Source: Candidatus Algichlamydia australiensis
GTDB lineage: Bacteria > Chlamydiota > Chlamydiia > Chlamydiales > JAJFMI01
Length of the DNA: 64,000 nucleotides
Direction: 5' to 3'
NCBI GenBank assembly: GCA_033977065.1
Contig: JAXCHI010000002.1
Span: 128,001 to 192,000 of the forward strand
The notes below the pieces were generated by a model. That model searched no databases, was not told the origin of the DNA, and saw only the letters and a program-made list of their open reading frames with translations. Shown piece by piece: positions 6,222 to 58,668 of the stretch; within the stretch, counting starts at the first letter, position 1, and every line of letters starts with the position of its first letter. The translations under genes were made by a program, and so were the position numbers.

Positions 6222-6385
6222 ATGAACCTATCCAACTAAACATGCTTTTGCCTTTTTCCACATTTTTGGCTGGATTTTGAGCTATTTTTTCAAACAACTT
6301 AATTAAGTTGTTTTCAAAAAGATCCCAAAATCCTTCTCAAAACTGAGAAAAAATTTCAAAAGCAGCTTTAGTTGGATAGGTTCAT
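6222..6385. repeat. 164-bp long-hairpin (MITE/RPE-like) element
   Basis: 19-bp perfect terminal IR atgaacctatccaactaaa/tttagttggataggttcat; nested pairing to central aaacaacttaattaagttgttt. Confidence 0.85.
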
Positions 6386-6413
6386 TCAGTCCCTCCCTTA
6401 CAACTTGAGAATT

Positions 6414-6644
6414 ATGAAAGATTTTATTGCTTATATTATTAAAAACATTGTGTCTAAACCCGATGATGTGAACATTGAAGTAAACGAGGGAGAGCAAAGT
6501 ACTGTTGTCGATATTCATGTTGACAAAGAGGACATCTCCAAAGTAATTGGTAAACAGGGCCGTACCATTAAAGCGATCCGCACAATTGCGCTTGCTGTAG
6601 GTGCCCGCTACGGACGTAAAGTCCGCATTGAGGTAATTCAATAG
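6414..6644 (+). CDS. khpA: KH-domain RNA-binding protein (KhpA family)
   Basis: KVIGKQGRTIKAIR GxxG loop; ATG at 6414 preferred because the longer ORF begins inside the hairpin element. Confidence 0.88.
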   Translation: MKDFIAYIIKNIVSKPDDVNIEVNEGEQSTVVDIHVDKEDISKVIGKQGRTIKAIRTIALAVGARYGRKVRIEVIQ

Positions 6645-6645
6645 T

Positions 6646-6987
6646 ATGACAACAATTAAAATTCGCGAAGAGAAGATCAAGGGGTGTCCTGTTCTTAAAG
6701 TGGAAGGACGTCTTGACGCGGCTTCAACAGCAACACTTGAAGCGCGCTTAAGCTCTCATCTTGAAAAGGGAGTTGATAAGATTTTAATCGACTTTTCAAA
6801 GATCGAATACTTGAGTAGTGCTGGCATGCGTCTTCTTCTCTCTGTGAATAAGCGTCTTCAGGAGGCAGGAGGCTTTTTAGGTCTCTACTCCTTGCGTGAG
6901 AGCGTAAGAGAGATTGTCAAACTTGCTGGATTTGAAAAGATTTTGACAATCTATGCAGACGAGAAAGAAGTAATTCAGACGATCTAA
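6646..6987 (+). CDS. rsbV: STAS-domain anti-sigma-factor antagonist
   Basis: GRLDAAS and YLSSAGMRLLL phospho-Ser motif; syntenic with chlamydial rsbV2-miaA. Confidence 0.9.
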   Translation: MTTIKIREEKIKGCPVLKVEGRLDAASTATLEARLSSHLEKGVDKILIDFSKIEYLSSAGMRLLLSVNKRLQEAGGFLGLYSLRESVREIVKLAGFEKILTIYADEKEVIQTI

Positions 6988-7994
6988 TGTCACAAGATTT
7001 TGGTACTTCGCCTCTTATCTCTCCTAAACGCTCACATATACAGCCTTCCCCTAAAAAGGGGAAGGTTTTGGTTTTAGCAGGCCCGACAGCAACGGGTAAA
7101 ACCAAAATAGGCATTGAAGTTGCTAAAAAACTTTCTGGTGAAATTATTTCTGCCGATTCTATGCAAGTCTATCTCGGCATGGACATCGGTACAGCCAAAG
7201 CCTCCCTCGAAGAACGCCTGGAAATCCCACATCACCTCATCGATATTTGCGAAATAGCAGACCCATTCAATGTAGCTAAATTTCACACAGAAGCCACTCG
7301 TCTCATAGAGGGGATTATTGCACGCGATCAGGTCCCGATTGTTGTAGGAGGAACTGGGTTTTACATTCACGCTCTTCTCTATGGACCACCGCAAGGACCG
7401 CCCTCAGATGAAAAAACGCGTATGGAGCTTGAAGAAGAGCTTGGTGAAAAGGGGGTAGAAGAGCTCTACGAAAGATTAAAAAGTTTAGATCCTGAGTATG
7501 CGAAGACGATTACACCACAAGATCGTGTAAAAATTGTACGCGCTTTAGAAATCATCAAGCTCTCTGATGAAAAAGTTTCAAAATTTAAAATTACCCTTCC
7601 TTCCCAGGCGATATCTCCATTTGATTTTCACTGCTGGTTTTTACACTATCCACGAGAAATATTATATCCACGAATAGAGATGCGCTGTGATGAGATGATT
7701 GCTAAAGGCTTTGTTAAAGAGGTAGAAGCTCTTTTGCGAAGAGGGTTGAGGGAGAATCGAAGTGCAGCTCTCTCCATCGGATACCGGCAATGTATAGAAT
7801 TTTTGGAGTCCGATCGTACGTCTCAGGAATTTGAAAAATTTATTTGGAGCTTCAAACAGGCCTCGCGGCGCTATGCAAAACGGCAATTTACCTGGTTTCG
7901 CAAAGAGCCCCTCTTTCATTGGCTTGATCTTTCCGAGCAGGGTGAAGAAGCTGCGATCGATCTTATCGTAGAAGAGTTCATTTCCTCGATATGA
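6987..7994 (+). CDS. miaA: tRNA dimethylallyltransferase
   Basis: GPTATGKT, SADSMQVY, VGGTGFY, YAKRQFTWFR. Confidence 0.97.
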   Translation: MSQDFGTSPLISPKRSHIQPSPKKGKVLVLAGPTATGKTKIGIEVAKKLSGEIISADSMQVYLGMDIGTAKASLEERLEIPHHLIDICEIADPFNVAKFHTEATRLIEGIIARDQVPIVVGGTGFYIHALLYGPPQGPPSDEKTRMELEEELGEKGVEELYERLKSLDPEYAKTITPQDRVKIVRALEIIKLSDEKVSKFKITLPSQAISPFDFHCWFLHYPREILYPRIEMRCDEMIAKGFVKEVEALLRRGLRENRSAALSIGYRQCIEFLESDRTSQEFEKFIWSFKQASRRYAKRQFTWFRKEPLFHWLDLSEQGEEAAIDLIVEEFISSI

Positions 7995-8009
7995 ACCTAA
8001 ATTTTTGCC

Positions 8010-8068
8010 CAGTTTTGCTCGATTTTTCGGCTTCTTTTCAAAAAGAGCAATTATTCAGTGGTTCCTAA
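8010..8068. repeat. Partial (one arm) copy of the 42971-43132 hairpin family
   Basis: aaaagagcaattattcagtggttcc matches the reverse complement of 42971-42996 (aaaagagcagttattcagtatctcc). Confidence 0.6.
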
Positions 8069-17203: not shown

Positions 17204-17260
17204 AAACTCAAGTTGCTACCCAGTCTCTCCAGAGGGGGAACGGGGTAGCAACTTGAGTTT
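17204..17260. repeat. Internally deleted hairpin element of family A; could serve as cysS terminator
   Basis: aaactcaagttgctaccc...gggtagcaacttgagttt 18-bp IR, same ends as 49481-49646 and 58503-58668. Confidence 0.8.
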
Positions 17261-18258: not shown

Positions 18259-19617
18259 TTAATTGGCTTTTTTAGCTAAAGGAGAAAACCCTGAAGGAGC
18301 GCCTTTTTCAACAAGAAAATCATGTAGGCCATGGAGCTTATTCTTGTCTGCTTCTAAAACTTCGTCAGAATTAAGGTTATTTGTGATGATTCTAGTTATT
18401 GCTAGTCCCTTATCATCACGCTTATTTAGCAATTCTGAAAGTTGTTCAGGGTTTTTTTGGAACATGATATCGATAAATTGACGAAAGTTATCCAAATCTA
18501 CCAATCCATCGATTAAAACATAAATTAGAGATTGGTAAATATTGTATACACGAAAATCATAACCTAGATCAAAAAAGTTATGCAGTATGTCAGGAGGGGT
18601 TGAAACAGAAATATCTGTTATTTTAGGGAGGAGAGGTTCGATTTTATTTGGATACTCTTCAAGCAAAAGCCTCATTATTTTGAAAGTTACCTCATTAATT
18701 TTCTCTTCAAATTGATCTCGTCGGAATGAATAACAATCGGCTGGAACCCAACAGCCGTTAAACAAGAGTTCAATAAAGGTGGTTTTTTCTGAGCTCTTTG
18801 CATCAAGAGTATGAGAATTGATCTCTAATAAAAACAAAAAGGAATCGTAGTTTAATATTGTCCATTTATATAAAAAGTTGTCGAATAACTTAGGTGTACT
18901 TAACTCATTTTTGACCTTTTCTCCCGAAGAAGGCTCATTAAATTTATACAGTGTTTTCGCTTCTTCGAGATTATTAGATTCTATGAAAGCCCAGAAGAAA
19001 GAAGATGCATTTTTACGGATAAGATCGGGATGATTTTTTTTAAGAAACTGGTAGCAACTAGTTTGATTGGCACTAGTAATATTCGAAACTACCTGAGATA
19101 TGAGGGTTTCTTCAAATTTACTAGACATATTTATGTATCCAAACCCATTTCCAATTTTTAAATACCATTCGATATAGGTTGGGTCATCATTTTTAAAGCT
19201 ATCTAACGCTTTAAAAATTTTGTTTCTAGCATTGAATATTGAGAAGAAAATATTTCCAACTGTTAACACGGTTAAAAAGGAAATGAATACTTGTGATGAT
19301 TTTCCAGAAAATTCTAAATTTGTAGAGTTGCATTTTTTAAAAATAGGTCTAAAAATATTAAATAGGGCAAAATTAAAATAAATAGAGAACTTTATTCCCG
19401 CAATTATATAAGGAATAGAAAGCTTTTGCACCCTCTCTCTTTTCTCAATTGGACCTACAAGATGATCTTCATTAAGTGCTCTTCCAACTGAATCAATGAG
19501 CACATTTATTGCCACAGCGGTTACTGTAGCTCTGTTTAAATACAGAGGTGCTAATCTCTGAATACCAGATAAGGAGAAAGCAGCGCATTTAGAAAGCGCA
19601 CACGTAATATTACTCAT
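18259..19617 (-). CDS. Hypothetical protein, paralog of 19674-21059; putative secreted or inclusion-membrane effector
   Basis: 452-aa AT-rich ORF; N-terminal hydrophobic segments; shared C-terminus LHxFLVEKGAPSGF. Confidence 0.6.
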   Translation of the reverse strand: MSNITCALSKCAAFSLSGIQRLAPLYLNRATVTAVAINVLIDSVGRALNEDHLVGPIEKRERVQKLSIPYIIAGIKFSIYFNFALFNIFRPIFKKCNSTNLEFSGKSSQVFISFLTVLTVGNIFFSIFNARNKIFKALDSFKNDDPTYIEWYLKIGNGFGYINMSSKFEETLISQVVSNITSANQTSCYQFLKKNHPDLIRKNASSFFWAFIESNNLEEAKTLYKFNEPSSGEKVKNELSTPKLFDNFLYKWTILNYDSFLFLLEINSHTLDAKSSEKTTFIELLFNGCWVPADCYSFRRDQFEEKINEVTFKIMRLLLEEYPNKIEPLLPKITDISVSTPPDILHNFFDLGYDFRVYNIYQSLIYVLIDGLVDLDNFRQFIDIMFQKNPEQLSELLNKRDDKGLAITRIITNNLNSDEVLEADKNKLHGLHDFLVEKGAPSGFSPLAKKAN

Positions 19618-19673
19618 TTTATCATCTCTCGGGGTTTGTATTTTGTTTCATAGAACTAAATATTAATTTTATT

Positions 19674-21059
19674 TTAATTCATAGCAGCACTCTTAGTCGG
19701 ATTTGGGAATCCTGAAGGAGCACCTTTTTCTACTAAAAACACGTGTAGATCACTAATTAAGCCTTTTTGCTCTTCTGAAATTTGGATATGCTCATTAGTA
19801 GTAATCATTTTTACAAGAGAGAGTGTAAAATATTTGCCTTTTATTAATTCAGAAAAGCCCGAAGGATCGATTTCTTCTACTAATTCAATAAATTCTTTGA
19901 ATTTTGTGATCTTTTCTTTATCGAAGTTAGCAGTTCTAAGTATGGGACCATAAAACCCTTGGGTGTGTAAATCTATTGCTGAATTAGAGAACGTTCTATA
20001 AAGAGTTGTTTTTTGAACTCTATATCCAATATCATATAGTTTGGGAAGAATTTCTGGAGCTTCAAAAAAAGAAAAAGAATTAATCTTTGGAAAATATTCT
20101 TTTACTGATTCTGGGTAGTGTTCTATTATATGGCTTTTAGTCCTTAATCTCTCATTTTCTATTTCTTCATCTGCAATATTGGGATTCCATGTATTTACAA
20201 AAATAGATTTATTGAGAGTATGACCATGACTGTTTTTTATTTTGAATAAGTTGGGGTTAATTTTAAGTAAAAAGACGAGGGATTCATAAGTTAAATAGTC
20301 CCAAGACAAAAACTCTCCCTTGAAAATATTATTTGTTGTGAGAATATTTATTATTCCATTTTTATCGCAATACGATTTATGAAACTCAAATAACTCCCTT
20401 GCTTTTTCCAAATTTTTCGAAATTATAAAACGTTTGAAAAAGGCAGAAACATGTTCGTGGATAAATTTGGGATGGGTATCCTTTACATACTGATAAACTT
20501 CTACTTGGCCGTTTTCAATATTCAAGCAAAGATTTCTGCTTAGCAAACTATTGAAATAATCTATTTTTTTAAAAATATTAAGAGCATAGTTAGCTGTAAA
20601 AAAGGTGCCAATATAGGTTGTATTATTATTTTCAAAACTTTTTTGAAGTTTATTTTCAATATAAGACTTGATTTTTTCTCTGCCATTTATAATAGATAAA
20701 CCAATATTTCCAATAGTTATTGCCAACAACACTACACCAAACTGTTTTGTTAAACTCTTATGAATTGGATTCTCAAAACCCTCAGGTAAGTTTTCTGGAA
20801 TATTTAAAAAAACAAGGCCAACTACCGATAAATCATATAGTACAAACCTAGTAAGAAGTTGTGTTTCATTAAAAATTTTATTAAATCGACTAGGATACCC
20901 ATTTGCTCCAATGATGTGTGCTTCACCAAAAATTTTATAACCTGCACATTCAATTAAGATATTCACAGCAAGTGTTGTGATAACAGCTGCGTTACGAGAA
21001 ACCGGAGTTAAAGCTCGGTACCCAGAGCTTATAAGAGAACTACATTGAGAAAGCTGCAT
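19674..21059 (-). CDS. Hypothetical protein, paralog of 18259-19617; putative effector
   Basis: 461-aa AT-rich ORF; shared AxNxLI, TxGNI, DxGY and FLVEKGAPSGF blocks. Confidence 0.6.
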   Translation of the reverse strand: MQLSQCSSLISSGYRALTPVSRNAAVITTLAVNILIECAGYKIFGEAHIIGANGYPSRFNKIFNETQLLTRFVLYDLSVVGLVFLNIPENLPEGFENPIHKSLTKQFGVVLLAITIGNIGLSIINGREKIKSYIENKLQKSFENNNTTYIGTFFTANYALNIFKKIDYFNSLLSRNLCLNIENGQVEVYQYVKDTHPKFIHEHVSAFFKRFIISKNLEKARELFEFHKSYCDKNGIINILTTNNIFKGEFLSWDYLTYESLVFLLKINPNLFKIKNSHGHTLNKSIFVNTWNPNIADEEIENERLRTKSHIIEHYPESVKEYFPKINSFSFFEAPEILPKLYDIGYRVQKTTLYRTFSNSAIDLHTQGFYGPILRTANFDKEKITKFKEFIELVEEIDPSGFSELIKGKYFTLSLVKMITTNEHIQISEEQKGLISDLHVFLVEKGAPSGFPNPTKSAAMN

Positions 21060-21060
21060 T

Positions 21061-21480
21061 TTAATTCCTATCTTTCAAGGTTCTATATCTCTCTCCACAA
21101 AAAAACCAAGAGTCTTCTAACTTCCAGCTAAATGGATTATACTTGTAGACGTGCTTATCCACCTCTTGGAAAAAACTTAGGTCAGCATCATGCTTTGCAT
21201 AGTGATGCACTTTCGCCGCAGCAATTGTTAAGACATTTAGAATGGCAAATGAATAAAAGAGTTGTGCTGGAAAAGATTTCCGCGGTGTATCGAATAAGTT
21301 CTTTATTCCTGCATAAACTACTACAGCGGATGTAAAGACTCCAAATTTATTAACCTGAGTTGCCTCTTTTGCTGTCCACACATTTGCTGCTACAAGAGCA
21401 ATGGTTGCTACGGCGTCTGTGCCTTGAACAAATTTGGGATCTATTTTAGGGATAAAATTTTGTACTGTTTTAATATTCAT
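21061..21480 (-). CDS. Hypothetical membrane protein (Inc-like candidate)
   Basis: Several hydrophobic segments; ATGA overlap with the upstream ORF. Confidence 0.5.
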   Translation of the reverse strand: MNIKTVQNFIPKIDPKFVQGTDAVATIALVAANVWTAKEATQVNKFGVFTSAVVVYAGIKNLFDTPRKSFPAQLFYSFAILNVLTIAAAKVHHYAKHDADLSFFQEVDKHVYKYNPFSWKLEDSWFFCGERYRTLKDRN

Positions 21481-21869
21481 TTTTTTAATTCATCCTCGGG
21501 ATAGTAAATTGGAGAGGTATTCTCTTTATTTTCAAAAAAACTATTTATGAAAGAGGCTGTTTCCCTTCCAAGATTTTGTGAGGTTTCTATGAGTTCGTTT
21601 GATTTATTGTAAGCGTATATTAAGACGTTCATAGCAGTTAAAAGATAGAAGAGGGGATTGAGTTTGGTAAAGTGGCAAGAAGCTAGCCCCAATGCTATAT
21701 TTGGTCCTGTAAGCGATCTTTGAATCAAATAGGGATTTTCGTTTCTATACTGGTTGTCAAAGTAAATATTTGAAATAAGCGCTGCAACTTTAGTTGTAAC
21801 TTTTAATGTATGTGTTATTTGCTCTACTGTAGGAAGGGGGAGATATCTCCCTAAGACTGCAGCTGACAT
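21477..21869 (-). CDS. Hypothetical membrane protein (Inc-like candidate)
   Basis: AGGAG SD upstream; hydrophobic segments; first gene of a four-gene AT-rich run. Confidence 0.5.
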   Translation of the reverse strand: MSAAVLGRYLPLPTVEQITHTLKVTTKVAALISNIYFDNQYRNENPYLIQRSLTGPNIALGLASCHFTKLNPLFYLLTAMNVLIYAYNKSNELIETSQNLGRETASFINSFFENKENTSPIYYPEDELKK

Positions 21870-21939: not shown

Positions 21940-24174
21940 TTATTCCTCGGGGCGCATAACAGGAAAGAAGACCACGTCGCGAATACTGGTTTCTCCTGTA
22001 AAGAGCATGGTAAGACGATCGATGCCGATACCAAAGCCGCCAGTAGGAGGCATTCCCTGGCAGATCGCTTCAAGGAACTCTTCATCGAGGGGACTCGCCT
22101 CTTCATCACCTGCTTCGCGCTTTTCATTTTGCTGGACGAGCAGTTGGCGTTGGATTTCTGGGTCGTTGAGTTCGGTGTAGGCGTTGCAAAATTCAAAGCC
22201 AAGGATGAATGTTTCAAAACGCTCAACGATCTGCTCTTCGCGCTCTTTCGGATTGCGATGCAGCTTGCAGAGAGGAGTCGTTTCAATCGGGTGATCGATG
22301 ATGTGTGTAGGCTGAATAAGATGATGTTCAACGAGTTCTTCAAAGAGCATAGCGATCAGTTTGCCGCGTGGAGCGTTGTCGATCGCTTCTTGTTCAAGAT
22401 CGGATTTGTCGGAGAGAGTCTTGCGTATCTGCTCATCTGAGAGTTTTTCAACATTGATATTGGCATACTCTTGGATGCTATCTTTCATTGTGATGCGCTT
22501 CCAAGGGCGTTGCAGGTTGATTGCGTGCTCTTTTCCCTCTTTATCTTTGCGCATGCCGATCTGTGTGGTGCCGAAAAGGGCGAGAGCGACATCTTCAAAG
22601 ATTTTTTCTACAAAGTCCATCACATCATTGTAATCCCAGTATGCCGCGTAGGCTTCGAGCATAGTGAATTCGGGATTGTGTGTGCGGTCGATACCCTCAT
22701 TGCGAAAAACTTTTGCGAGTTCATAGACGCGCTCAAAGCCTCCTACAATGAGTTTTTTGAGAGGAAGCTCAAGAGAGATGCGCAAAAACATCTCTAGGTT
22801 GAGGGCGTTGAGGTGCGAGACGAAGGGACGCGCTTCGGCACCGCCATACATGTTTTGCAGAACGGGATTTTCGACTTCCAGAAACTTTGTCTCCTCCATT
22901 GTTTTGCGAATGGTGGAGAGGATTTTTGAGCGAACTTTAAATGTCTCGATCGACTGTTTGTTGGTGATCAGGTCGAGCCAGCGCTTGCGGTAGCGTGTGC
23001 CTTTATCGGTTAGGCCGTGATGCTTGTCGGGAAGCGGAAGAAGAGATTTTGTAAGAAGAGTGACCTCTTTAGCATAGAGAGTAAGCTCGCCTTTTTGCGT
23101 GCGAAAGAGGTGGCCTGAGACGCCAATAATATCGCCAAGGTCGATCTTCTTTTCAATAAATTTTATTGCTGATTCCCCATCGGGCAGCCCGCAAACAGTT
23201 GTATGATCGCGGTTGAACATCACTTGAACGCGCTCTCCCTCTTCTTGCAGATGGGCAAAAGCGTTTTTTCCCATAGCGCGAAAGAGCATGAGACGGCCAG
23301 CGACACAGCTCTCAGGTGTGGTCCCACTTGCTGCTGCTTCGCTATCTGCTAACTCCTCTTTTTCATATTTACTATTGAGGTCGCGAATCGCGTGAGTGGG
23401 AGAGTACTTGTGCGGATAGGGATTCATTCCTGATGCGCGAATCTCAGCTAGTTTTTCTGAGCGCTTTTTAAAGTCGTCCCACCGAAAGTAATCGGGAAGG
23501 GGGTTGGCAATGATGATTTTTTCTTCAACAAAGCCGCCGCAATATTTTTCGATCAGGGTTTTAAGCTCAAGAGTAGCCTGGCGCAGCTCTTCTTTAGTCG
23601 TGCTTTCTAAACCCTCAATAACAAAGTTTGCGTTAGTTGTATTCTCAGTGACTTTACTCTTCTCACATTCACGATAGTTCCAAGAGCGACAGAGTACTTC
23701 CTCATCGTCGCGGTAGATAACCTCACCGGGATTCACATTTACCGTTTTGTCACCACCCAAAATAGTGAAGGGCTCATTACCTTCTGCAACCGTTAGTTCA
23801 ATTTTTCCCTTCACGTGATCAAGGTCATCAGAACCAGCTGCTAGGGTATGCTTTAAAGAGATAAGGTTGTAGAGATTGACAAGGGGATTGATGTCGGGAA
23901 GCTCTTTACCCTGCAAAGCGCGACGCGTGAGCGCTTCAACAGAGCTGCGATCTTTAGAACCAAAAGCGCGGTAGGCTTCACGCCAATCTTTAATCTTAGG
24001 CACCTGAGAAATTTTTTCAATTTCATAGCGCTCGCGAATCTCTTTTTCAGCAACGCGTAGCTGCTCCAAGATTTCTGCATGCGCTTTGCGATTATTGGCA
24101 CCGCGAACGGTAACAACCCCAAGCTTGGCATGGGGGAATTTCTTTTTAATTTCTGGGGCTATTTGTACGATCAT
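21940..24174 (-). CDS. lysS: Class II lysine--tRNA ligase with N-terminal B3/4 editing-like domain
   Basis: From about aa 225: AGRLMLFRAMGK OB fold, GGAEARPF, FRNEGIDRTHNPEFT, GMPPTGGFGIGIDRL. aa 1-220: WREAYRAFG, SSVEAL.RR, INPLVNLYNLISL, GEVIYRDD, WNYRE (B3/4). Confidence 0.95.
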   Translation of the reverse strand: MIVQIAPEIKKKFPHAKLGVVTVRGANNRKAHAEILEQLRVAEKEIRERYEIEKISQVPKIKDWREAYRAFGSKDRSSVEALTRRALQGKELPDINPLVNLYNLISLKHTLAAGSDDLDHVKGKIELTVAEGNEPFTILGGDKTVNVNPGEVIYRDDEEVLCRSWNYRECEKSKVTENTTNANFVIEGLESTTKEELRQATLELKTLIEKYCGGFVEEKIIIANPLPDYFRWDDFKKRSEKLAEIRASGMNPYPHKYSPTHAIRDLNSKYEKEELADSEAAASGTTPESCVAGRLMLFRAMGKNAFAHLQEEGERVQVMFNRDHTTVCGLPDGESAIKFIEKKIDLGDIIGVSGHLFRTQKGELTLYAKEVTLLTKSLLPLPDKHHGLTDKGTRYRKRWLDLITNKQSIETFKVRSKILSTIRKTMEETKFLEVENPVLQNMYGGAEARPFVSHLNALNLEMFLRISLELPLKKLIVGGFERVYELAKVFRNEGIDRTHNPEFTMLEAYAAYWDYNDVMDFVEKIFEDVALALFGTTQIGMRKDKEGKEHAINLQRPWKRITMKDSIQEYANINVEKLSDEQIRKTLSDKSDLEQEAIDNAPRGKLIAMLFEELVEHHLIQPTHIIDHPIETTPLCKLHRNPKEREEQIVERFETFILGFEFCNAYTELNDPEIQRQLLVQQNEKREAGDEEASPLDEEFLEAICQGMPPTGGFGIGIDRLTMLFTGETSIRDVVFFPVMRPEE

Positions 24175-24294
24175 TTCTCAGTTCCTTCCCTCCCATTCTA
24201 GAGAGTTGCCTCTCTTTTGGCAAGGGTTCACAATTTTTCTTTACCTGTATGTAAATTTTTGATAAACTCAGGGAGTTTTTGGATTTGGAGAAAG

Positions 24295-26238
24295 ATGCAA
24301 TTACAAGATTTGCAAAAGCTCGTAGTTAAGGGAGAGTCTGAAACCCTTGAATTTAAAAAAACAACTGGACAAAGATGTGAGGCAGCGAAAACAATTTGTG
24401 CATTTTTGAATGGAGTTGGTGGGTATGTGCTTTTTGGTATTTCCGACGATGGAAAACTTATTGGACAGCAAATAACAACAAAAACTTTAGAAGATATTAC
24501 GCATGAAATACGCAAATTGGAGCCTCCTGCATTTCCAGAAATAGAAATTGTTGGGGTTCGGTCAAATAGGTCAGTGATTGTTGTGCGAGTCCCAGGAAAA
24601 TTTGGGACGTTTTCCTATTGTGGACGGCCTTATATTCGACTTGGCTCTACAACACAGATCATGCCGCGTGAAGAGTATGAAAAACGTATATTGGATAAAT
24701 TTCATGCTCATCGAAGATGGGAAAATGAGCTTGCTCCTGATTGGGTGACAATCGCGGATTTGGATGAGGAAGAGATAGAGACTACATTGCAAAATGCGAT
24801 TCAGCTTGGGAGGATGAGGCAACCTTCTAAAACAGATTCTGAGTCAATTTTAAGGGGGTTAGGTCTCATAGATCAGAATCGGTTGATCAATGCAGCTATT
24901 GCTTTATATGGGAAAAGTGAAAAATTATTTTCGTGCTTTCCTCAGCTTATGATGAAACTGGCTAGATTTCGAGGAGCTGATCGGTTGCAAGGATTTATTG
25001 ATAATCGCGAATACTGGGGGAGTGCTTTTTCTTTGTTAAAAAGAAGTGAGCAGTTTTTACTTGATCATGTTCCTATTGCAGGTAGGGTAGTTCCTGGGAA
25101 AATGATTCGTGAAGATTATCCACTATTTCCCCCACTTGCTATTCGTGAGGCGATGGCAAATGCAATTTGCCATCGGGATTATACCACTTCTGGGGGAGCG
25201 GTTGGTATTGCCATGTATGATGATCATCTTGAAGTAATCAATCCGGGAACATTTCATTTTGATATTACACCTGAAAAACTCTCTTTACCACACGAATCCA
25301 AACCTTGGAATCCCATTATTGCAAGTGTGTTATATCGGGCGGGTGTGATAGAAAAGTGGGGAACAGGAACTTTAAATATCATTGAATGGTGTGTTAAAAA
25401 CAAAAATCCAGCTCCAGAATGGAAAGTACGGTCCCAATCTGTTGTAACGACTTTTTACCCTTCATCAGTGTTTAGTGGATACAAAAAACCCGAGTTGAGG
25501 CCCGAGTCATTAGAGGCAGAGGTGGTAAAATTGCTTCAAAAAGGAGCTCTCTCAAAGTCTGAAATAGCCCAATCTTTAGGGCATAAAAAGATATCTGGTG
25601 CATTGAAGAAAACACTCGATCAGCTGCTTAAGAAAAAAGAGATTTTTTATACAATCCCCGAAAAACCAAATAGTAAATTTCAGAAATATAAAAGTCCTGA
25701 ATCGGGGCCCGAGTTGAGGCCCGAGTTGAGGCCCGAGTTGAGGCCCGAGTTGAGGCCCGAGTCATTAGAGACTGAGGTGGTAAAGTTGCTTCAAAAAGGA
25801 GCTCTCTCAAAGTCTGAAATAGCCCAATCTTTAGGGCATAAAAAGATATCTGGTGCATTGAAGAAAACACTCGATCAGCTGCTTAAGAAAAAAGAGATTT
25901 TTTACACAATTCCTGAGAAACCAAATAGTAGACTTCAAAAATACAAAAGGCCCGAGTCGAGGCCCGAGTTGAGGCCCGAGTCGAGGCCCGAGTCGAGGCC
26001 TGAGTCGAGGCCTGAGTCGAGGCCTGAGTCAAGGCCTGAGTCACTCGAAATGGCTATATTAAAATTACTAGGAGAGAAGCCTCGATCAAAATCTGAAATT
26101 GCTGCTGCTTTAGGTCACAAGCACGTTTCTGGGGGGCTGAAAAAATTGCTTCTTCTTCTGTTGCAACAAGGCAAAATTGCTTACACGATTCCTGAAAAGC
26201 CAAATAGTAGGTTGCAAAAATACCGATTAGAAAATTAA
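24295..26238 (+). CDS. Schlafen/AlbA_2 + ATPase-like (RecG_C / HATPase_c_4 type) protein with three C-terminal winged-HTH repeats
   Basis: ESETLEFKK, CAFLNGVGG.VLFGISDDG (AlbA_2); REAMANAICHRDY, NPG, IEKWGTG; three copies of SKSEIA..LGHK...YTIPEKPNS..QKY; GGAG SD before ATG 24295. Confidence 0.85.
   Translation: MQLQDLQKLVVKGESETLEFKKTTGQRCEAAKTICAFLNGVGGYVLFGISDDGKLIGQQITTKTLEDITHEIRKLEPPAFPEIEIVGVRSNRSVIVVRVPGKFGTFSYCGRPYIRLGSTTQIMPREEYEKRILDKFHAHRRWENELAPDWVTIADLDEEEIETTLQNAIQLGRMRQPSKTDSESILRGLGLIDQNRLINAAIALYGKSEKLFSCFPQLMMKLARFRGADRLQGFIDNREYWGSAFSLLKRSEQFLLDHVPIAGRVVPGKMIREDYPLFPPLAIREAMANAICHRDYTTSGGAVGIAMYDDHLEVINPGTFHFDITPEKLSLPHESKPWNPIIASVLYRAGVIEKWGTGTLNIIEWCVKNKNPAPEWKVRSQSVVTTFYPSSVFSGYKKPELRPESLEAEVVKLLQKGALSKSEIAQSLGHKKISGALKKTLDQLLKKKEIFYTIPEKPNSKFQKYKSPESGPELRPELRPELRPELRPESLETEVVKLLQKGALSKSEIAQSLGHKKISGALKKTLDQLLKKKEIFYTIPEKPNSRLQKYKRPESRPELRPESRPESRPESRPESRPESRPESLEMAILKLLGEKPRSKSEIAAALGHKHVSGGLKKLLLLLLQQGKIAYTIPEKPNSRLQKYRLEN
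25489..25952 (+). repeat. Intragenic near-identical duplication of an HTH module (255-bp period)
   Basis: 25489-25697 recurs almost identically from 25744. Confidence 0.9.
25708..25764 (+). repeat. 12-bp tandem repeat (cccgagttgagg)x4 plus partial, encoding PELR
   Basis: Directly visible. Confidence 0.95.
25948..26043 (+). repeat. 12-bp tandem repeat (aggccYgagtYR)x8, encoding RPES/RPEL
   Basis: Directly visible. Confidence 0.95.
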
Positions 26239-37967: not shown

Positions 37968-37989
37968 TTTTTCTGTTACAGAGTACTAG
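37968..37989. repeat. Isolated right end of the 50560-50728 hairpin family
   Basis: ttttctgttacagagtactag matches the terminal IR; shares its CTAG with the next element. Confidence 0.7.
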
Positions 37990-39276: not shown

Positions 39277-39439
39277 AGGAGACACTGAACGACTCATGCA
39301 CCGTTATCTGGGCCGATAAATTCTAGAAGAGATTATTTTCGATCTCCATCAACTTGCAAAAGTTGATTGCGATTTCCAAATAATCTTTTCTAGATTTTTC
39401 AGCTCGGTCTAACGGCACAGCAGCTATTCAGCGGCTCCT
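39277..39439. repeat. 163-bp long-hairpin element (family B1) between nrdA and nrdB
   Basis: aggagacactgaa...ttcagcggctcct; clearly homologous to 42806-42966. Confidence 0.85.
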
Positions 39440-42805: not shown

Positions 42806-42966
42806 GGAAACATTGAACAATTCATGTACCGCTATCTCGGCCGAGAAATTCTAAGAAACTGCATTTTCAATCTTCATCAACTTAATACAGTTGATTGCGA
42901 TCTCCAAATGAAGTTTTTTAGAATTTTCGGCTCGACCTACCGGCACAGCAACTGTTCAGTGTTTCC
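42806..42966. repeat. 161-bp long-hairpin element (family B1)
   Basis: ggaaacattgaac...gttcagtgtttcc; centre atcaacttaatacagttgat; followed by ctaa. Confidence 0.85.
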
Positions 42967-42970
42967 CTAA

Positions 42971-43132
42971 GGAGATACTGAATAACTGCTCTTTTCGAGA
43001 AGAGATCAAAAAATGAGGACAAATTGGTTTTGGAGAACGGAGCTAACTCCAATATGAGTTAGTGAGTTTGAAAAACCGATTTGGACCAATTTTTGATCCC
43101 TTATCGAGAAGTCTGAGTTATTCAATGTTTCC
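42971..43132. repeat. 162-bp long-hairpin element (family B2), tandem with the previous one
   Basis: ggagatactgaataac...gttattcaatgtttcc, flanked by ctaa on both sides; same termini as B1 but a different interior. Confidence 0.85.
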
Positions 43133-43152
43133 CTAAGAGAAGGATTAAAGTC

Positions 43153-43977
43153 ATGCGACAAGTCTATCTTGTTCCGAATATCATCACAGCATTTGGGCTC
43201 TCATGCGGTCTTTACGTAATCTTTAAGGCTAACCTTATTGGAGAAGACATGGGCATATATGGTGTACTTTTATCCTCCTCTCTTCTTTTGATTCTCGCTT
43301 CGTTTGCAGACTTTCTTGATGGAGCAGTTGCGCGTGTACTGCATGCAGAAAGCGAATTTGGATTGATGTTTGACTCCCTTTCCGATGCGATCACTTTTGG
43401 AGTAGCACCTTCAGTCCTCCTTGTGAAAAGTCTTTCACCAGAACTTGGCACGCCCCTTTCTTTCTTTGTTGTGTTAGGGGCGATGCTCTTTTCTCTCTGC
43501 GGCGTTTTGCGTCTTGTTCGCTACAATGTAAAAGCGGCAGAGAAAAAGGAAAAACCTAAAGAAGAAAAACCGAGTTTTACTGGCTTGCCTATTCCCTCTG
43601 CAGCTCTCGCTGCTCTCTCAATCAATCTCTTTCTTAACTCTCCAAAAGGAGAGCTCTGGTTTCCGATGAGCATGATGACAAAATCGATCGTTCTCACTCT
43701 TTGCACACTCTTTGTCGGCTGTCTGATGGTTTCCAAAATCAAATTTCCTAGCCTCAAAGCACTGCACATCCGTGTCCCATCCGTACACCTCCTCTTTGCA
43801 ACTGTGATCTTTGCCATATTTTTGCTCTACGGCATTCTCTACCAATTTACTCTTGTCTTTACGATCCTTACTTGGGGTTATATCTTCACAGCCCTCGCTC
43901 TTCTCGTTACGCATTATATCGTCGGTAAGCGCACAAATGCCCTCAAAGCTTTCGATCCCGACGACGAAGAGGAATAA
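43153..43977 (+). CDS. pssA: CDP-diacylglycerol--serine O-phosphatidyltransferase
   Basis: PNIITA, DFLDGAVAR...G..FDSLSDAITFGVAP CDP-alcohol motif, LRLVRYN, FTGLPIP. Confidence 0.93.
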   Translation: MRQVYLVPNIITAFGLSCGLYVIFKANLIGEDMGIYGVLLSSSLLLILASFADFLDGAVARVLHAESEFGLMFDSLSDAITFGVAPSVLLVKSLSPELGTPLSFFVVLGAMLFSLCGVLRLVRYNVKAAEKKEKPKEEKPSFTGLPIPSAALAALSINLFLNSPKGELWFPMSMMTKSIVLTLCTLFVGCLMVSKIKFPSLKALHIRVPSVHLLFATVIFAIFLLYGILYQFTLVFTILTWGYIFTALALLVTHYIVGKRTNALKAFDPDDEEE

Positions 43978-44026: not shown

Positions 44027-45157
44027 ATGAGTATTAAAGAATTTCCTTTAAATTTAGCGCTTCCTTCATTTGGACAAACGGCTTTCCTCTCCTGGGGGTT
44101 GTGTCAGCTTGGATTGAGTCATCTTCAATCTAGAAGTCCTTATATTCAAAATAAAATTGTAGACAGGCGTCACACACTTCATACTGTAAATTCTTTTATT
44201 AGCTATTCAACGCTCGCATTTTTTTCCTATCGAGTAGTGAATGTGATACAGTACGGCGAATCTTGGGGCGTCCTAGAACCAGTAAGAAAGCTATTCTGTG
44301 AATTCAGGAGCTCTCCATTTATTCAATCTTCTTATAAATCGACAGTAACACTCTCAGAAATGACTGAAAAAATCTGCAGGAATTATATTGGAAATGATTT
44401 AACTTTCTTTGCTGCTCTTATGCTAGGATCGTTTTTCTTTATGGCTGTTTCAGGAGTTATAATAACGGTTTCAATATTGGCAGTAACTCGTTTTCACACT
44501 GCATTGCAGGATATCTCTAAAAAAACGAATTCACGTTGCTTGCCTTCAGAGGGTTTTGAGGATGTAGAAGATAAGATAAGTGTGGAATGGATAAATTCCC
44601 CTTATCAAAATACGCTGCAGTTTGATCACTTGCTTTCTCTTGTTGCAACAGTTGCGTTTGCTGCTTTAGCCGAGCAAAAATGGGCATTTCTTGTATTAGT
44701 GGTAGCGCAGATTAGCGCGGTAGTTACTGTGGCAAAATGGAAAACATTAAAATTCTCTTCAAAAGAAATAGAGTTGGAGAAAGTGAATGAGGGGCCTCAA
44801 AAATGCAAATTTCACTATATTTTTCCGGTAATTGAGTCTGCATCAGCAGGTACATATTTTTGCACGAATCACGAATTTCCTTTAATTAAAATTGTAGAGT
44901 CAATTTGTCAACAGCTAAATAGAGCTAAAATTAAGATTAAAAATCGACATACAGACCATCATTGGGAATACAACAAATTTTTGTATGATCGTATTTCGTA
45001 CAAAGTGACCGTCGAAAACAAAAACCTTCCTAGATGTAAACATGAGTGCAAAGCGCCACCTCGAAATGTATTTAGTGTGCAATTTTTCGATCGCCATATA
45101 GATCAAAAAAGAAAAGTGTCAGAGGAGTGGATTCCGGCCCAAATCACAGTTGTATAG
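44027..45157 (+). CDS. Hypothetical membrane protein; cargo between two pssA 3' ends
   Basis: 376-aa ORF, several hydrophobic segments, Cys/His-containing C-terminus; TG-n-TACAAT promoter immediately upstream. Confidence 0.6.
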   Translation: MSIKEFPLNLALPSFGQTAFLSWGLCQLGLSHLQSRSPYIQNKIVDRRHTLHTVNSFISYSTLAFFSYRVVNVIQYGESWGVLEPVRKLFCEFRSSPFIQSSYKSTVTLSEMTEKICRNYIGNDLTFFAALMLGSFFFMAVSGVIITVSILAVTRFHTALQDISKKTNSRCLPSEGFEDVEDKISVEWINSPYQNTLQFDHLLSLVATVAFAALAEQKWAFLVLVVAQISAVVTVAKWKTLKFSSKEIELEKVNEGPQKCKFHYIFPVIESASAGTYFCTNHEFPLIKIVESICQQLNRAKIKIKNRHTDHHWEYNKFLYDRISYKVTVENKNLPRCKHECKAPPRNVFSVQFFDRHIDQKRKVSEEWIPAQITVV

Positions 45158-45236
45158 GGGATACTGAATAAAGAACCCATCCTGGTAAACAAGTTTTTGT
45201 CACTTTCTCTTATTTTGTCCAGTACTGAGATTTAAA

Positions 45237-45353
45237 ACTATTCTCACTTGGGGCTACATCTTCACAGCACTCTGCCTCCTCATCACACATTACATTGTGG
45301 GCAAACGCACCGATGCCCTCAAAGCTTTTGATCCTGACGACGAAGAGGAATAG
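45237..45353 (+). pseudogene. Orphan second copy of the last 38 codons plus stop of pssA
   Basis: Translates TILTWGYIFTALCLLITHYIVGKRTDALKAFDPDDEEE*, collinear with 43861-43977. Confidence 0.9.
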
Positions 45354-49480: not shown

Positions 49481-49646
49481 AAAACCCGAGTTGCTACCCC
49501 CTTCCCCCTTTGGAGAGTGCCTTTTCGCGACCTACTTAACTTCAACTCTCAGAAATGTTTATTAAACATTCCCTTCGAGTTGAAATTAAGTATCCCATCA
49601 AAAATCCTTCTCTCCATAGGAGAAATTGGGTAGCAATTCGAGTTTT
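49481..49646. repeat. 166-bp long-hairpin element (family A)
   Basis: aaaacccgagttgctaccc...gggtagcaattcgagtttt; homologous to 58503-58668. Confidence 0.88.
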
Positions 49647-49794
49647 AAAAAAAGAGAGGAGTATGGCTGGTCAAACTACTCTTATTCGGCATGAAGGCGG
49701 GACTCAAAATGGAGCTAAAGATGGCTCGCATGTTAGAAGCTAGAGTATTGATTGCATAGCCCCAAAAACACCTTACAGTGTAAAACTCAAGTTG

Positions 49795-50451
49795 TTAACC
49801 AATTTCTTCTAAGGCGAGATTCTTCTCATGAAAATGCATTGCGTGTGAACTCTCTTTACTCAGGCCCATTTCTTTATACGAGAATGAAGCTTCCAAATTA
49901 GGAAGTCTTTTATATCCTAAACTTTCCCAAAAAGTAGTTAGACTTTTGTATTCAGTAGGCATCCTTTTGTCAGATTTATCACGGAAAATTTCACATAAAA
50001 CAACTTTTTCAAATTTCTTTAGTTCTTTCAAGAATTTTTCAAAAGCCAAATACATTTTCTTTCCTGTGCCTTTATTTCTAAACTCCTTCAAAAGCATGAT
50101 TTCACCTAAATAGTAAACTTTATTCATTGGAAGGTTTTTTTTAAGGAACACCTCTTGGACTTCCTCCATCGATTCGCTTACCGGAATTCCGGTAACAGCA
50201 CCAATAACAGTCCCACCTTCAATTGCTAAAATAAATAAAGCATTTTGAGTTTCGGCGTAGATTTGAAGATACTTTTCTTCCCCATCATAACTTCCATCGT
50301 ATAGGTATGGCCACTCTTTAAAAACAACCATTCTAAGTCTAGCAAGCTCGCGTAAATATGGAAGTATCTCTTTTCCTTGTAAGCTAATAATTTCAATGTT
50401 TTTCTTGTAAGTCATATTAAAAATCGAAGCGAAGCAAAGCAAAAAGGTCAA
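49795..50451 (-). CDS. GNAT-family acetyltransferase (start uncertain; ATG alternative at 50415)
   Basis: LARLRMVVFKEWPYLYDG, YLGEIMLLKEFRNKGTG acetyl-CoA motif, FWESLGY. Confidence 0.85.
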   Translation of the reverse strand: MTFLLCFASIFNMTYKKNIEIISLQGKEILPYLRELARLRMVVFKEWPYLYDGSYDGEEKYLQIYAETQNALFILAIEGGTVIGAVTGIPVSESMEEVQEVFLKKNLPMNKVYYLGEIMLLKEFRNKGTGKKMYLAFEKFLKELKKFEKVVLCEIFRDKSDKRMPTEYKSLTTFWESLGYKRLPNLEASFSYKEMGLSKESSHAMHFHEKNLALEEIG

Positions 50452-50559: not shown

Positions 50560-50728
50560 CTAGTACTCTGTAACAGAAAATTTTAGCATTATTTTTACGT
50601 TAAAGCCTCGGGATTGAACTATCGAAAATCACCTCGTATTTGATTAATACTAGGTGACTTGCGATAGCCCAATCGCGAGAGCTTTCACGTTAAAAAGAAT
50701 AGCAAAATTTTCTGTTACAGAATACTAG
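50560..50728. repeat. 169-bp long-hairpin element (family C) with CTAG ends
   Basis: ctagtactctgtaacagaaaatttt / aaaattttctgttacagaatactag; nested pairing to the centre. Confidence 0.88.
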
Positions 50729-51801: not shown

Positions 51802-51920
51802 GGCAAGTGCTGAACAGGTCACGATTTCCGAAAAAGCTTCGAAAATCGGTCGAAATTAATTTTTCGAACTCGCTAACTCTTATGAAGTTAGCTCTGTTCT
51901 CCAACATCAATTTTGCCTCA
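51802..51920. repeat. Truncated, diverged reverse-orientation copy of the B2 hairpin
   Basis: ttttcgaactcgctaactcttatgaagttagctctgttctccaa aligns to the reverse complement of about 43030-43075. Confidence 0.7.
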
Positions 51921-56670: not shown

Positions 56671-56676
56671 TCGCTT

Positions 56677-57114
56677 TTACCTGCGCCCGCCGCCTCTACG
56701 GCCTCCGCCGCGACGTCCACCACCTCCGCCATGGTAATGGTAGTGTTGGTGCACATCTGTTTTGTGGCCTCCAGCTGGTTCAGCGCGACGCTCTCCAGCT
56801 CTATTATCGCGCTCGCGGTTGCGATCTCGATTTCGATCATAGTCACGATCTCGGTCCCAATCTCGGTCATAGTGGTAGTGGTAATGGTAGAAGAGGTGGT
56901 TGCGTCTCCAACCGATAAAGGCTGCTTCGGTTGCAAACCAGAGACCGTAATAGTAGCCCGGACCGACCCAAACGACATTATCTGATTGATCAGAGTCGTT
57001 TTGACTATCTGACTTGTCATTACTACTATCTTGATTATTTTGATCGTTTTGAGCGCACATGGTGCAACAGACCATTGTTATGGAAGCAAGAAAAAAAGAA
57101 AGATATTTATTCAT
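56677..57114 (-). CDS. Secreted Tyr/His/Arg-rich low-complexity protein (paralog 1)
   Basis: Signal peptide ending MCA, D/N/Q/S spacer, WVGPGYYYG core, HY and RD repeats, RGG tail. Confidence 0.7.
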   Translation of the reverse strand: MNKYLSFFLASITMVCCTMCAQNDQNNQDSSNDKSDSQNDSDQSDNVVWVGPGYYYGLWFATEAAFIGWRRNHLFYHYHYHYDRDWDRDRDYDRNRDRNRERDNRAGERRAEPAGGHKTDVHQHYHYHGGGGGRRGGGRRGGGRR

Positions 57115-57169
57115 TTTAAAGAAAATTAAGCTTTTCTTTTTAATAACAAATAAAAATTATTTGGTAAAA

Positions 57170-58396
57170 TTACTTTCTTCTTTTTCTTTTTGCGGGTTTT
57201 CTTTTATTTTGAAAACGGGGACGAGGCTTTGGACGAGATGAAGTTGAAGGTTTTTTTCTAGATGGCTCAAATCCCACTCTTTCAACGACATCCATCTTGT
57301 GCCCTGTGAATTCTTGAATTTTTTTCACTAAGTGCGCATCCCGATGGGAAGCAAACGAGAGAGCTGTACCTTTTGCACCCGCTCGACCTGTTCTTCCAAT
57401 CCGATGAACGTAATCTTCGATGTTACGCGGAAGATCAAAGTTGATCACGTGGGTGATCGATTGTACATCGATACCGCGCGCTGCAACATCAGTTGCAACT
57501 AAAATTTTAATCTTTCCATTGCGCAGCTGAGAGATCGTGCGTGTGCGCTGTCTTTGGCTCATATCGCCATGGAGTGCCGCTGTAGAAAACCCTTTGTCAT
57601 AAAGCTCCTCAACTAACTGATCGGCATGCCGTTTAGTAGAAGTAAAGACGATCGCGTTATCAATAGGATCTTCATTTAGGATATGGTCGAGCAGACGGTT
57701 TTTATGCCCAATGTTATCGACATAGTGAAGATTTTGTTGGATGTTCTCGTGCTTTGCTTTTTTAGCGTGGACAACAACATCTACAGGATTCCGCATCAGC
57801 TCGTTAGAAAATTTCATAACACTACCTTCAAGGGTGGCGGAAAAGAGGAGTGTTTGACGCGATTTTGGAGTTGCCGAAGCGATTTGATTGACGGGTTCAA
57901 CAAAACCCATATCGAGCATGCGATCCGCTTCATCAAGAATAAGCATCTCAACTTTTGAAAGGTTAACCTTGCGCTGCGTGATGAGATCGATCAAGCGTCC
58001 TGGGGTGGCAATCAGCAAATCACATGGCCGTGCGAGCTTTCGCAGCTGTTTGTGATAGGGAACACCGCCATAAATACAAGCAACTTTCATCTTCTGCAAA
58101 TATTTGCCGTACTTTTCAACCTGAGTAGAGATTTGAATTGCTAACTCGCGAGTTGGAGCCAAAATCAGTACACGAGGAGCCTTGCTTGGTTTTTCTCGAG
58201 GAGTGAGAATTTTGTTAATAGCAGGGAGAAGAAACGCAGCAGTCTTACCAGTCCCTGTTTGGGCAGAAGCGCGAAGGTCGAGACCTTCAGAGACTTTCGT
58301 TATAGTTTTAAATTGAACTTCAGTAGGTTCCAAATACCCGGCCTCTTCAAGAGCTTTTAGAAGTTTGGGGTGTAGATTAAATTTTTCAAAAGACAC
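57170..58396 (-). CDS. DEAD-box RNA helicase (RhlE-like)
   Basis: AQTGTGKT, PTRELA, DEADRMLDMGF, SAT, HRIGRTGRAG; basic C-tail; GTG start with AAGGA SD. Confidence 0.95.
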   Translation of the reverse strand: MSFEKFNLHPKLLKALEEAGYLEPTEVQFKTITKVSEGLDLRASAQTGTGKTAAFLLPAINKILTPREKPSKAPRVLILAPTRELAIQISTQVEKYGKYLQKMKVACIYGGVPYHKQLRKLARPCDLLIATPGRLIDLITQRKVNLSKVEMLILDEADRMLDMGFVEPVNQIASATPKSRQTLLFSATLEGSVMKFSNELMRNPVDVVVHAKKAKHENIQQNLHYVDNIGHKNRLLDHILNEDPIDNAIVFTSTKRHADQLVEELYDKGFSTAALHGDMSQRQRTRTISQLRNGKIKILVATDVAARGIDVQSITHVINFDLPRNIEDYVHRIGRTGRAGAKGTALSFASHRDAHLVKKIQEFTGHKMDVVERVGFEPSRKKPSTSSRPKPRPRFQNKRKPAKRKRRK

Positions 58397-58502
58397 GAGA
58401 TATTCCTTGGTGATTTTTTGGATCTATCTGAATAGGCTTGTTGTGCTATTTTCTACCAATTTTGCGATATTTTCCCGAATAACTTTAATCAAGTTAGTCT
58501 TG

Positions 58503-58668
58503 AAAACTTAAGTTGCTGCCCCCCTTTCCCCTCTGAAGAGATCCTTTTTGCGACCTGTTTCGTTTCAAATTTCAGAAATGTTTAACAAACATTCCTTCAA
58601 TTTGAAACGAAACATCTCATCAAAAATCCCTCTCTCTATAGAAGAAACTGGGTAGTAACTTAAGTTTT
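58503..58668. repeat. 166-bp long-hairpin element (family A)
   Basis: aaaacttaagttgctgccc...gggtagtaacttaagtttt; collinear with 49481-49646. Confidence 0.88.

Follow-up and report, generated by a model that had tools for sequence, protein, structure and literature searches.

Intergenic hairpin elements of near-uniform length and miniature-transposon type in a 64-kb stretch of a Chlamydiales genome

The window and its hairpin elements

We analysed a 64,000-nt stretch of the genome of the uncultured chlamydia Candidatus Algichlamydia australiensis (contig JAXCHI010000002.1, positions 128,001 to 192,000; hereafter the window, to whose positions all elements and gene calls refer), in which long palindromic hairpin elements of about 160 bp recur between conserved genes. 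The window has a G+C content of ~43% and carries housekeeping genes typical of chlamydiae (the dcw cluster, fabF, aas, cysS, lysS, priA, ftsY, sucCD, htrA, pssA and phoH), together with a three-ATP-cone nrdA and its partner nrdB. The encoded NrdB is 93-96% identical to proteins from metagenomic contigs and to one from a Chlamydiales bacterium metagenome-assembled genome (MAG), and its identity to Simkaniaceae and Rhabdochlamydiaceae proteins is 83-86%. All copies of the hairpin elements are intergenic and touch the ends of open reading frames (ORFs) by a few bases at most. An element or remnant is present in 13 of the 18 spacers of at least 60 bp, and elements and remnants together account for 34% of the intergenic bases in the window. 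Every full element is non-coding, measures 159-190 bp and has terminal inverted repeats, and frames that happen to be open across the elements are not conserved from copy to copy.

A preliminary description of the window had listed nine such elements, and all nine were recovered in an unbiased palindrome census, in which the window was compared by BLAST with its own reverse complement (spans of 800 bp or less). The census returned 18 non-overlapping local palindromes, nine of them long (161-189 bp) and nine of 82 bp or less, with none between 82 and 161 bp. The long palindromes lie at 6208-6396 (189 bp), 28465-28625 (161 bp), 37986-38152 (167 bp), 39277-39439 (163 bp), 42806-42966 (161 bp), 42968-43135 (168 bp), 49481-49646 (166 bp), 50560-50728 (169 bp) and 58503-58668 (166 bp). 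The full elements, designated by letters, and the fragments are as follows; z is the folding score against shuffled sequence, and elements to which no strand is assigned are called unstranded.

6208-6397, unstranded: element D, with a 164-bp palindromic core at 6222-6385 (core z -9.8, extended z -11.5) and an imperfect outer inverted repeat of B type, 11-14 bp (GGAGCGTCTGA / GGGAGGGACTGA); a TTAC direct repeat flanks 6208-6397
7991-8067, minus strand: 77-bp remnant; its B2-like arm carries a terminal repeat of B type (8049-8065), and its D-like start (ATGAACCTA) adjoins the stop codon of miaA
17204-17260, minus strand: internally deleted family-A element of 57 bp, both terminal repeats kept and 95% complementary
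28465-28625, unstranded: element E, a 161-bp palindrome (z -6.9) that fills the spacer between priA and the upstream ORF; duplication not readable
33411-33480, plus strand: D-like left-arm remnant between an M50 peptidase gene and htrA
37969-37989, minus strand: solo end of C2, identical at 17 of 17 positions to the terminus at 50564, abutting C at a shared CTAG
37986-38152, unstranded: element C, 159 bp (37990-38148) between two CTAG; z -14.6
39277-39439, plus strand: copy 1 of family B (161-163 bp), which lies between T runs (TTTT) and fills the nrdA-nrdB spacer
42806-42966, plus strand: copy 2 of family B (161 bp), with 79-80% identity to the first and without a matching flanking repeat
42971-43132, minus strand: element B2, 162 bp, with a CTAA duplication, 4 bp from the end of family B copy 2
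45157-45173, plus strand: possible B-type terminal remnant with 3 mismatches, at chance level
49481-49646, plus strand: family A copy 1, element proper 49482-49645 (164 bp, AAAC...GTTT), with a TAAA duplication
49782-49819, minus strand: family-A solo arm end, overlapping the stop of a GNAT gene
50560-50728, unstranded: element C2, 161 bp (50564-50724) between two CTAG; z -18.6
51839-51920, minus strand: internal remnant of B2-like sequence (81% over 83 nt) that retains the AACT...AGTT apex
58503-58668, plus strand: family A copy 2, element proper 58504-58667 (164 bp), with a TTGA duplication

Seven fragments had been proposed in addition to the full elements. Six of them were confirmed by BLAST or motif search (7991-8067, 17204-17260, 33411-33480, 37969-37989, 49782-49819 and 51839-51920), and the one at 45157 was not: at its level of 3 mismatches the B terminal pattern has 14 matches in the window versus 6.8 expected.

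Folding and net length

Each element folds from its ends to its centre into a single bulged rod of 56-73 pairs, as had been described. The minimum free energies of the DNA folds ranged from -29 to -55 kcal/mol, compared with -10 to -17 kcal/mol in dinucleotide shuffles, which corresponds to z = -5.2 to -18.6 across the nine elements (100 dinucleotide shuffles each). Two of the spans first reported required revision: the supposed 147-bp element is the 161-bp palindrome at 28465-28625, and the element at 6222, given as 164 bp, extends on its outside into a further, imperfect inverted repeat (6208-6396).

The CTAG at both ends of the elements at 37986 and 50560 are probably target duplications, and so, probably, are the outer A/T of the two A copies. 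Once duplications are set aside, the net length is 159 bp for C; 161 bp for C2, for the B copy at 42806 and for E (whose ends are set by the palindrome only); 161-163 bp for the B copy at 39277; 162 bp for B2; and 164 bp for both A copies. For D the probable full length is 190 bp; were the core alone the element, it would be 164 bp. A common length had been claimed for these hairpins, and it is found in eight of the nine elements, which belong to five unrelated groups and have net lengths of 159-164 bp.

Element families

The two full copies of family A are 78% identical to each other, and those of family B 79-80%. Element B2 has the same terminal repeat as B and, when inverted, is 53-57% identical to B in register; judged by alignment, it is a diverged, inverted relative of B. 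Element D, the outer ends of which are of B type, appears loosely tied to the same group. Beyond B and B2 no in-register identity was found between groups, local alignments between groups reached z values of at most 4.6, and a MAFFT multiple alignment of all nine elements yielded no common columns. The distinct terminal inverted repeats counted earlier are confirmed, and at least five groups (A, B/B2, C, C2 and E) are without detectable homology. The apical stem AACT-N(5-8)-AGTT, also reported earlier, is present in five of the nine full elements (the carriers being B, B2, D and E, with N(6-8)) and in one fragment, with 16 matches in the window versus 6.9 expected; in addition, B2 and E have a 40-nt apical stretch in common. 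An 18-nt terminal pattern of family A fits all 7 of its termini. Within the 64 kb, family A is represented by two full copies and two remnants, the B group by three or four full copies and remnants, C2 by one copy and a solo end, and C and E by one copy each.

Two further observations concern the termini. The sequence (A/T)TGAACCTA forms the left boundary of the D-like arms at 6222, 7991 and 33411 and lies at or over a stop codon at two of these three sites (miaA and the M50 peptidase gene); it may be an inner terminal repeat or a preferred junction. Inside the ORF at 24217-26238, whose product is a Schlafen/AlbA_2 + HATPase_c_4 + Fic-like_C protein, a 255-nt unit is tandemly duplicated (25489-26054, 93%) and contains runs of a 12-nt repeat (GAGGCCCGAGTT-like). 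This 12-nt unit has CCCGAGTTG in common with the family-A terminal repeat (match at 25486), possibly by chance.

Covariation between the arms

The two arms of the rod co-vary in both two-copy families, well beyond controls, in agreement with the earlier proposal that structure matters. In family A, 9 of 51 consensus pairs have changed on both sides and still pair, versus none in six slid controls, a count that none of 500 shuffles reached. In family B this was true of 6 of 52 pairs, versus 0-1 in slid controls, and the compensated pairs include transversion swaps (GC/CG and AU/UA) that transitions cannot explain. A second test, in which the fold of a single copy served as reference and the substitutions were permuted, gave 8 compensated pairs for family A versus 1.5-1.8 expected (0 of 20,000 permutations reached 8) and 6 for family B versus 1.5-1.7 expected (P ~0.001-0.002). 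Single-sided changes were depleted correspondingly, with 8-9 versus 19-20 expected in family A and 8-12 versus 19-21 expected when both families are considered.

The compensated pairs of family A lie mostly in the apical third of the rod, remote from the terminal repeats, and an asymmetric internal loop of this family is conserved in sequence. Therefore, the co-evolution of transposase-binding ends fails to explain the covariation. Perfect snap-back copying would have erased the conserved internal loops. Taken together, these results indicate that the rod is maintained over its whole length and is not a passive relic. Such maintenance would reflect selection on the rod, whether during propagation of the elements or where they have inserted.

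Flanking duplications and mobility

Perfect, non-palindromic 4-bp repeats flank four elements: TAAA at the A copy at 49482-49645, TTGA at the A copy at 58504-58667, CTAA at B2 and TTAC at D. Other flanks are CTAG at both C and C2 and a low-complexity TTTT at the B copy at 39277. Because a symmetric 4-bp repeat was found at only 3.5% of 20,000 random 165-bp spans, perfect non-palindromic repeats at four of nine elements are far above chance. Two insertions occurred exactly at the tetranucleotide that flanks an older element, namely that of C by the C2 solo end (CTAG) and that of B2 by B (CTAA). These adjoining insertions (37969-38152 and 42806-43132) suggest the targeting of YTAR sites or of DNA beside an existing hairpin.

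Duplications of this staggered 4-bp kind are a hallmark of DDE enzymes, which transpose into double-stranded DNA by cut-and-paste or copy-paste. To our knowledge, neither HUH/RAYT enzymes nor integron recombination would be expected to leave them. The 4-bp duplications, the adjoining insertions, the deletion derivative and the solo arm therefore point to transposition by staggered cuts, of the type of MITEs (miniature inverted-repeat transposable elements). The view that these elements are mobile and non-autonomous is likewise supported by their multi-copy families, terminal inverted repeats, 4-bp duplications, solo ends and deletion derivatives, and by the lack of a transposase in the window that had been noted at the outset: none of the 68 window ORFs scanned matched a transposase, integrase, HUH or RAYT family, and a lenient rescan of 11 unknown window ORFs gave sub-threshold matches only.

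IS5-like ends of the B group

The ends of IS5 in Escherichia coli K-12 are GGAAGGTGCGAATAAG / GGAAGGTGCGAACAAG, and the copies IS5B and IS5D are flanked by TTAG duplications. In a post hoc comparison, B-type ends such as GGAAACATTGAATAAC agreed with the IS5 ends at 10 of 16 positions, including GGAA and GAAYAA. A 4-bp duplication of the form YTAR may be a further common trait (CTAA and possibly CTAG here, TTAG in IS5). The fit to YTAR is partial within the B group: CTAA of B2 fits, TTAC of D and TTTT of the B copy at 39277 do not, and the B copy at 42806 has no duplication to compare. The A duplications, TAAA and TTGA, are not YTAR. A further difference is that IS5 itself does not form a palindrome over its whole length; the ends of A, C, C2 and E are unlike those of IS5, and no IS5-family transposase is present in the window. 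We regard the likeness of the B group (B, B2 and D) as a lead rather than as proof of IS5-family membership. The mobiliser of this group is most likely an IS5-family transposase, which would recognise ends of the form GGAA....GAAYAA and insert B, B2 and D, the commonest group, at YTAR targets.

Database and literature searches

No Rfam covariance model matched the elements at its gathering score; the matches at E <=1 were to plant microRNA precursors, ~50 bits below threshold, and were rejected as generic long-hairpin resemblance. A distant blastn search of a plasmid collection with six element-bearing stretches returned no match. The two-ended pattern of family A, which matches both full A copies of the window, was found at 4 loci in genome contigs, all in unrelated MAGs, the window's own copies not being among them; none of these loci folds as a rod, and they were rejected as chance matches. 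In protein space, a spurious frame of family B gave no candidate. The corresponding search with a family-A frame gave a single 1282-aa tandem-repeat ORF, which was rejected as a low-complexity chance match.

Our literature searches returned no report of such hairpin elements in chlamydiae. Classical Chlamydia are described as nearly devoid of repetitive elements (PMC2878342), and the account of the Waddlia genome in the same paper gives repeats >200 bp and transposases, with no mention of such hairpins in that account. The Waddlia repeats and the MITEs of Thiomargarita (PMC4853749) were set aside as matches, both host and elements being different in what these papers describe.

Other features of the window

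Several features of the neighbouring genes were recorded alongside the elements. The last 116 nt of pssA (43861-43976) are duplicated 1.38 kb downstream (45237-45352, 81% identical), and the 39-residue C-terminus encoded by the downstream copy is still the same. Between the two copies lies an orphan ORF of 376 aa (44027-45157) that has no relatives in 5.8 billion protein clusters, no PDB relative and no usable Atlas match. As a candidate mobiliser this ORF had a restriction-endonuclease-like match alone, which was sub-threshold (E 0.021), and it was not treated as one. The arrangement resembles that expected if a small insertion had entered the 3' end of pssA and brought a replacement gene end with it.

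The priA gene (26243-28478, minus strand) is divided between two ORFs that overlap: its N-terminal part ends at 27492, and C-terminal homology begins in a different frame at ~27526, through a frameshift, as a pseudogene or by an assembly error. A low-G+C island (33% vs 43%) at 18259-21869 on the minus strand holds four ORFs without a family match, and its two long ORFs (452 and 461 aa), which have common repeated stretches ~1.4 kb apart, are probably paralogues. Finally, the lysyl-tRNA synthetase gene (21940-24174, minus strand) encodes an N-terminal extension of ~234 residues without a family match, LysRS homology being confined to residues 233-743.

Discussion

On balance we favour, with moderate confidence, the reading that the elements are new families of MITE-type hairpins that create 4-bp duplications, are mobilised in trans by DDE transposases and are maintained as rods, with their length a shared physical optimum. 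The hairpins, their families, the duplications, the covariation, the intergenic position and the lack of a transposase in the window are observed; the DDE or IS5 partner and the reasons for rod and length are inferred. According to this proposal, staggered-cut transposases of DDE type, supplied from outside the window, would insert the elements into double-stranded DNA. The rod is most likely required for either or both of two reasons. Extrusion as a cruciform or hairpin may be the only way for a short element to present its two ends jointly to the transposase, or read-through transcripts may have to fold into a harmless or useful RNA hairpin. The net length of 159-164 bp that unrelated families share is, tentatively, best seen as a physical optimum of ~2 x 80 bp, near the stiffness length of duplex DNA, at which an element of ~160 bp would be long enough for folding and synapsis and would stay below the range in which long palindromes are unstable. 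The common length would then not be a ruler within an enzyme that reads structure. Several MITEs in other bacteria measure 154-170 bp (PMC3184786, Table 1), and the common length seen here, unusual as it is, falls within a size range that recurs elsewhere.

A number of observations weigh against this proposal. With regard to the duplications, E and the B copy at 42806 have no matching flanking 4-bp repeat; CTAG is self-complementary and at C and C2 is perhaps part of the inverted repeat and not a duplication; the TTTT of the B copy at 39277 sits within a T run; the TTAC duplication of D requires asymmetric ends; and the 57-bp A derivative has a TCTA repeat only after a 1-bp shift of its ends. 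No transposase partner for any family is present in the window, and an insertion sequence (IS) as partner is hence inferred. The match of 10 of 16 positions to IS5 was chosen after the fact, in a comparison with IS5 alone. To move terminal repeats of five or more unrelated kinds, several transposases, or a single one with relaxed specificity, would be required. The covariation rests on two copies per family, in which selection during propagation, selection at the insertion site and arm-to-arm correction are not separable. The common length is based on nine elements in 64 kb, of which D is probably 190 bp long. A general physical optimum is also insufficient as the sole explanation of this length, because the lengths of MITE families vary in other genomes, for instance with families of 119, 165 and 257 bp in Haloquadratum and a range of 150-435 bp for those of Microcystis (PMC3184786, Table 1).

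The covariation would find another explanation if old MITE insertions had been kept by the host as RNA hairpins with a role in processing, stability or termination, the compensatory changes and the length then reflecting selection on the transcript at each site. The elements occupy short intergenic spacers, several of them in or beside operons such as nrdA-nrdB, and ERIC, YPAL and Correia elements are described as co-transcribed and as affecting mRNA stability (PMC2229807, PMC3184786). Mismatches between the arms are strand-biased (20 G.T vs 39 A.C on the plus strand), and, among the seven elements whose neighbours run in the same direction, RNA of the sense strand of the flanking genes folds more stably in five, with a margin of up to 27 kcal/mol; at 49482-49645, 58504-58667, 28465-28625 and 50564-50724 the sense-strand RNA folds 9-27 kcal/mol better, G.U taking the place of A.C mismatches. 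This bias is suggestive but, at five of seven, not significant, and a transcription-linked mutation bias could yield the same strand asymmetry. The 14.5 kb scanned for regulatory signals (37.5-52 kb) showed no promoter enrichment (24 promoter-like sites vs 23.6 expected), and its terminator-like sites (23 vs 13.7 expected) are not consistently placed on elements. There is also no Rfam match, and a function specific to each site leaves the equal length of unrelated families unexplained. We therefore consider retention as host RNA hairpins unlikely as the main account, if worth keeping in view.

A variant of DDE transposition would make structure a condition of movement. One or a few transposases of relaxed specificity would accept any ends carried on a rod of ~80 bp and would leave the 4-bp duplications; we hold this to be a speculative and rather improbable version. 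On the same terms, and just as tentatively, environmental chlamydiae could be imagined to carry a guild of rod hairpins that propagate via cruciform or single-strand synapsis, unrelated sequences converging in length and changing compensatorily.

The preliminary description had gone further and proposed a single mobiliser that reads the folded single strand, by rod shape and length and not by terminal sequence, in the manner of attC and integrase or of HUH/RAYT enzymes on repetitive extragenic palindromic (REP) sequences. Such an enzyme would fit the unrelated terminal repeats at a net 159-164 bp, the covariation of the arms over the full length of the rod, even in the apical third at a distance from the ends, the conserved internal loops of family A, and the apex motif present in B, B2, D and E despite their differing arms. 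It is, however, at odds with the perfect non-palindromic 4-bp duplications at four elements of three groups, with terminal repeats that are conserved within families as a sequence-reading enzyme would give, and with the resemblance of B-type ends to those of IS5. The folded single strand of attC is recognised in this way, and attC sites carry RYYYAAC/GTTRRRY core sites and follow gene cassettes. These cores are absent from all nine elements on both strands, and the window's neighbours of the elements are housekeeping genes in their usual order, with no integron cassette context and no integrase. REPIN/RAYT and TIR/TIRYT systems are likewise hairpin repeats whose folded single strand is recognised by an enzyme, and RAYT-like enzymes with long terminal-inverted-repeat families are described (PMC3733652). 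REP units differ from the elements in that they are 20-40 bp long and GTAG- or CGTC-tagged (PMC3733652); here the units are single rods of ~160 bp, and only E starts with GTAG. There is no HUH, RAYT or integrase gene in the window. The suggested likeness to attC sites and REPINs is thus not borne out, given these absences and the 4-bp duplications, and for the same reasons, together with the conserved, partly IS5-like terminal repeats, we find the idea of a mobiliser that ignores sequence hard to sustain and give it a low probability.

Descent from one ancient palindrome, with length inherited and sequences diverged past recognition, would account for the AACTY...RAGTT apex of B, B2, D and E, the 40-nt apex common to B2 and E, the in-register homology of B and B2 and the B-type outer ends of D. 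It does not extend to A, C and C2, which resemble neither one another nor the B group (local z <=2.8, none in register) and have wholly different terminal repeats, and keeping length within 5 bp during complete divergence would itself require a constraint on length; we judge a single ancestor very improbable. An artefact of assembly or amplification, with inverted chimeric joins, might be suspected of any MAG, the source of this sequence, but is virtually dismissed here: the elements are short, internal and flanked by intact conserved genes in the expected order, and diverged copies (78-80%), remnants and nested insertions with duplications are not made by chimeric joins.

If the elements are MITE-type hairpins, as we favour, their general form has precedents. 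There are good descriptions of bacterial MITEs, 100-200 bp in size, that form long stem-loops, have target-site duplications and are co-transcribed (PMC2229807). The closest in form include ERIC/IRU (~127 bp), YPAL/RU-2 (~168 bp) and Correia/NEMIS (~104-157 bp), which, like the present elements, are non-coding, shorter than 200 bp and intergenic, have terminal inverted repeats and target-site duplications and pair from end to centre over the whole element, often being co-transcribed with their neighbours (PMC2229807, PMC3184786). The elements of the window differ from these in having no sequence similarity to them (in Rfam or the plasmid collection) and in a duplication of 4 bp, as opposed to TA or the 3-26 bp of YPAL. 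Moreover, ERIC, YPAL and Correia each form a single family per host, whereas here at least five unrelated families occur at one length. The ~155-bp mobile repeat bcr1, which belongs to the Bacillus cereus group and has direct repeats of 5 bp, provides a parallel for the covariation, in that compensatory changes maintain its double-stranded structure, and these are described as acting at the RNA level (PMC3184786). It differs in host phylum, sequence and duplication length, and it is one family, not several of equal size.

Rickettsia palindromic elements (RPEs), to which the hairpins had also been compared, are known for in-frame insertion into protein-coding genes. Both consist of several palindromic families in an intracellular host, and they part in that all copies here are intergenic and none is in-frame within a gene. 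RPEs have spread in the genome of an obligate intracellular host. They are listed as palindromic repeats of 100-150 bp with uncertain duplications (PMC2229807, Table 1). Those of the present elements are clear, and the two are set apart by description only.

The elements bear on how short transposons are usually understood. MITEs are commonly taken for insertion sequences that have lost their interior and retain no more than the ends read by a transposase. If the pattern seen in this window holds across the genome, what can spread would be limited by DNA or RNA shape as well as by the ends, and the elements would offer a concrete system for how very short transposons bring their ends together. 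About one third of the intergenic DNA in this window of an uncultured member of the Chlamydiales consists of mobile hairpins, which bears on both genome assembly and operon regulation in these bacteria.

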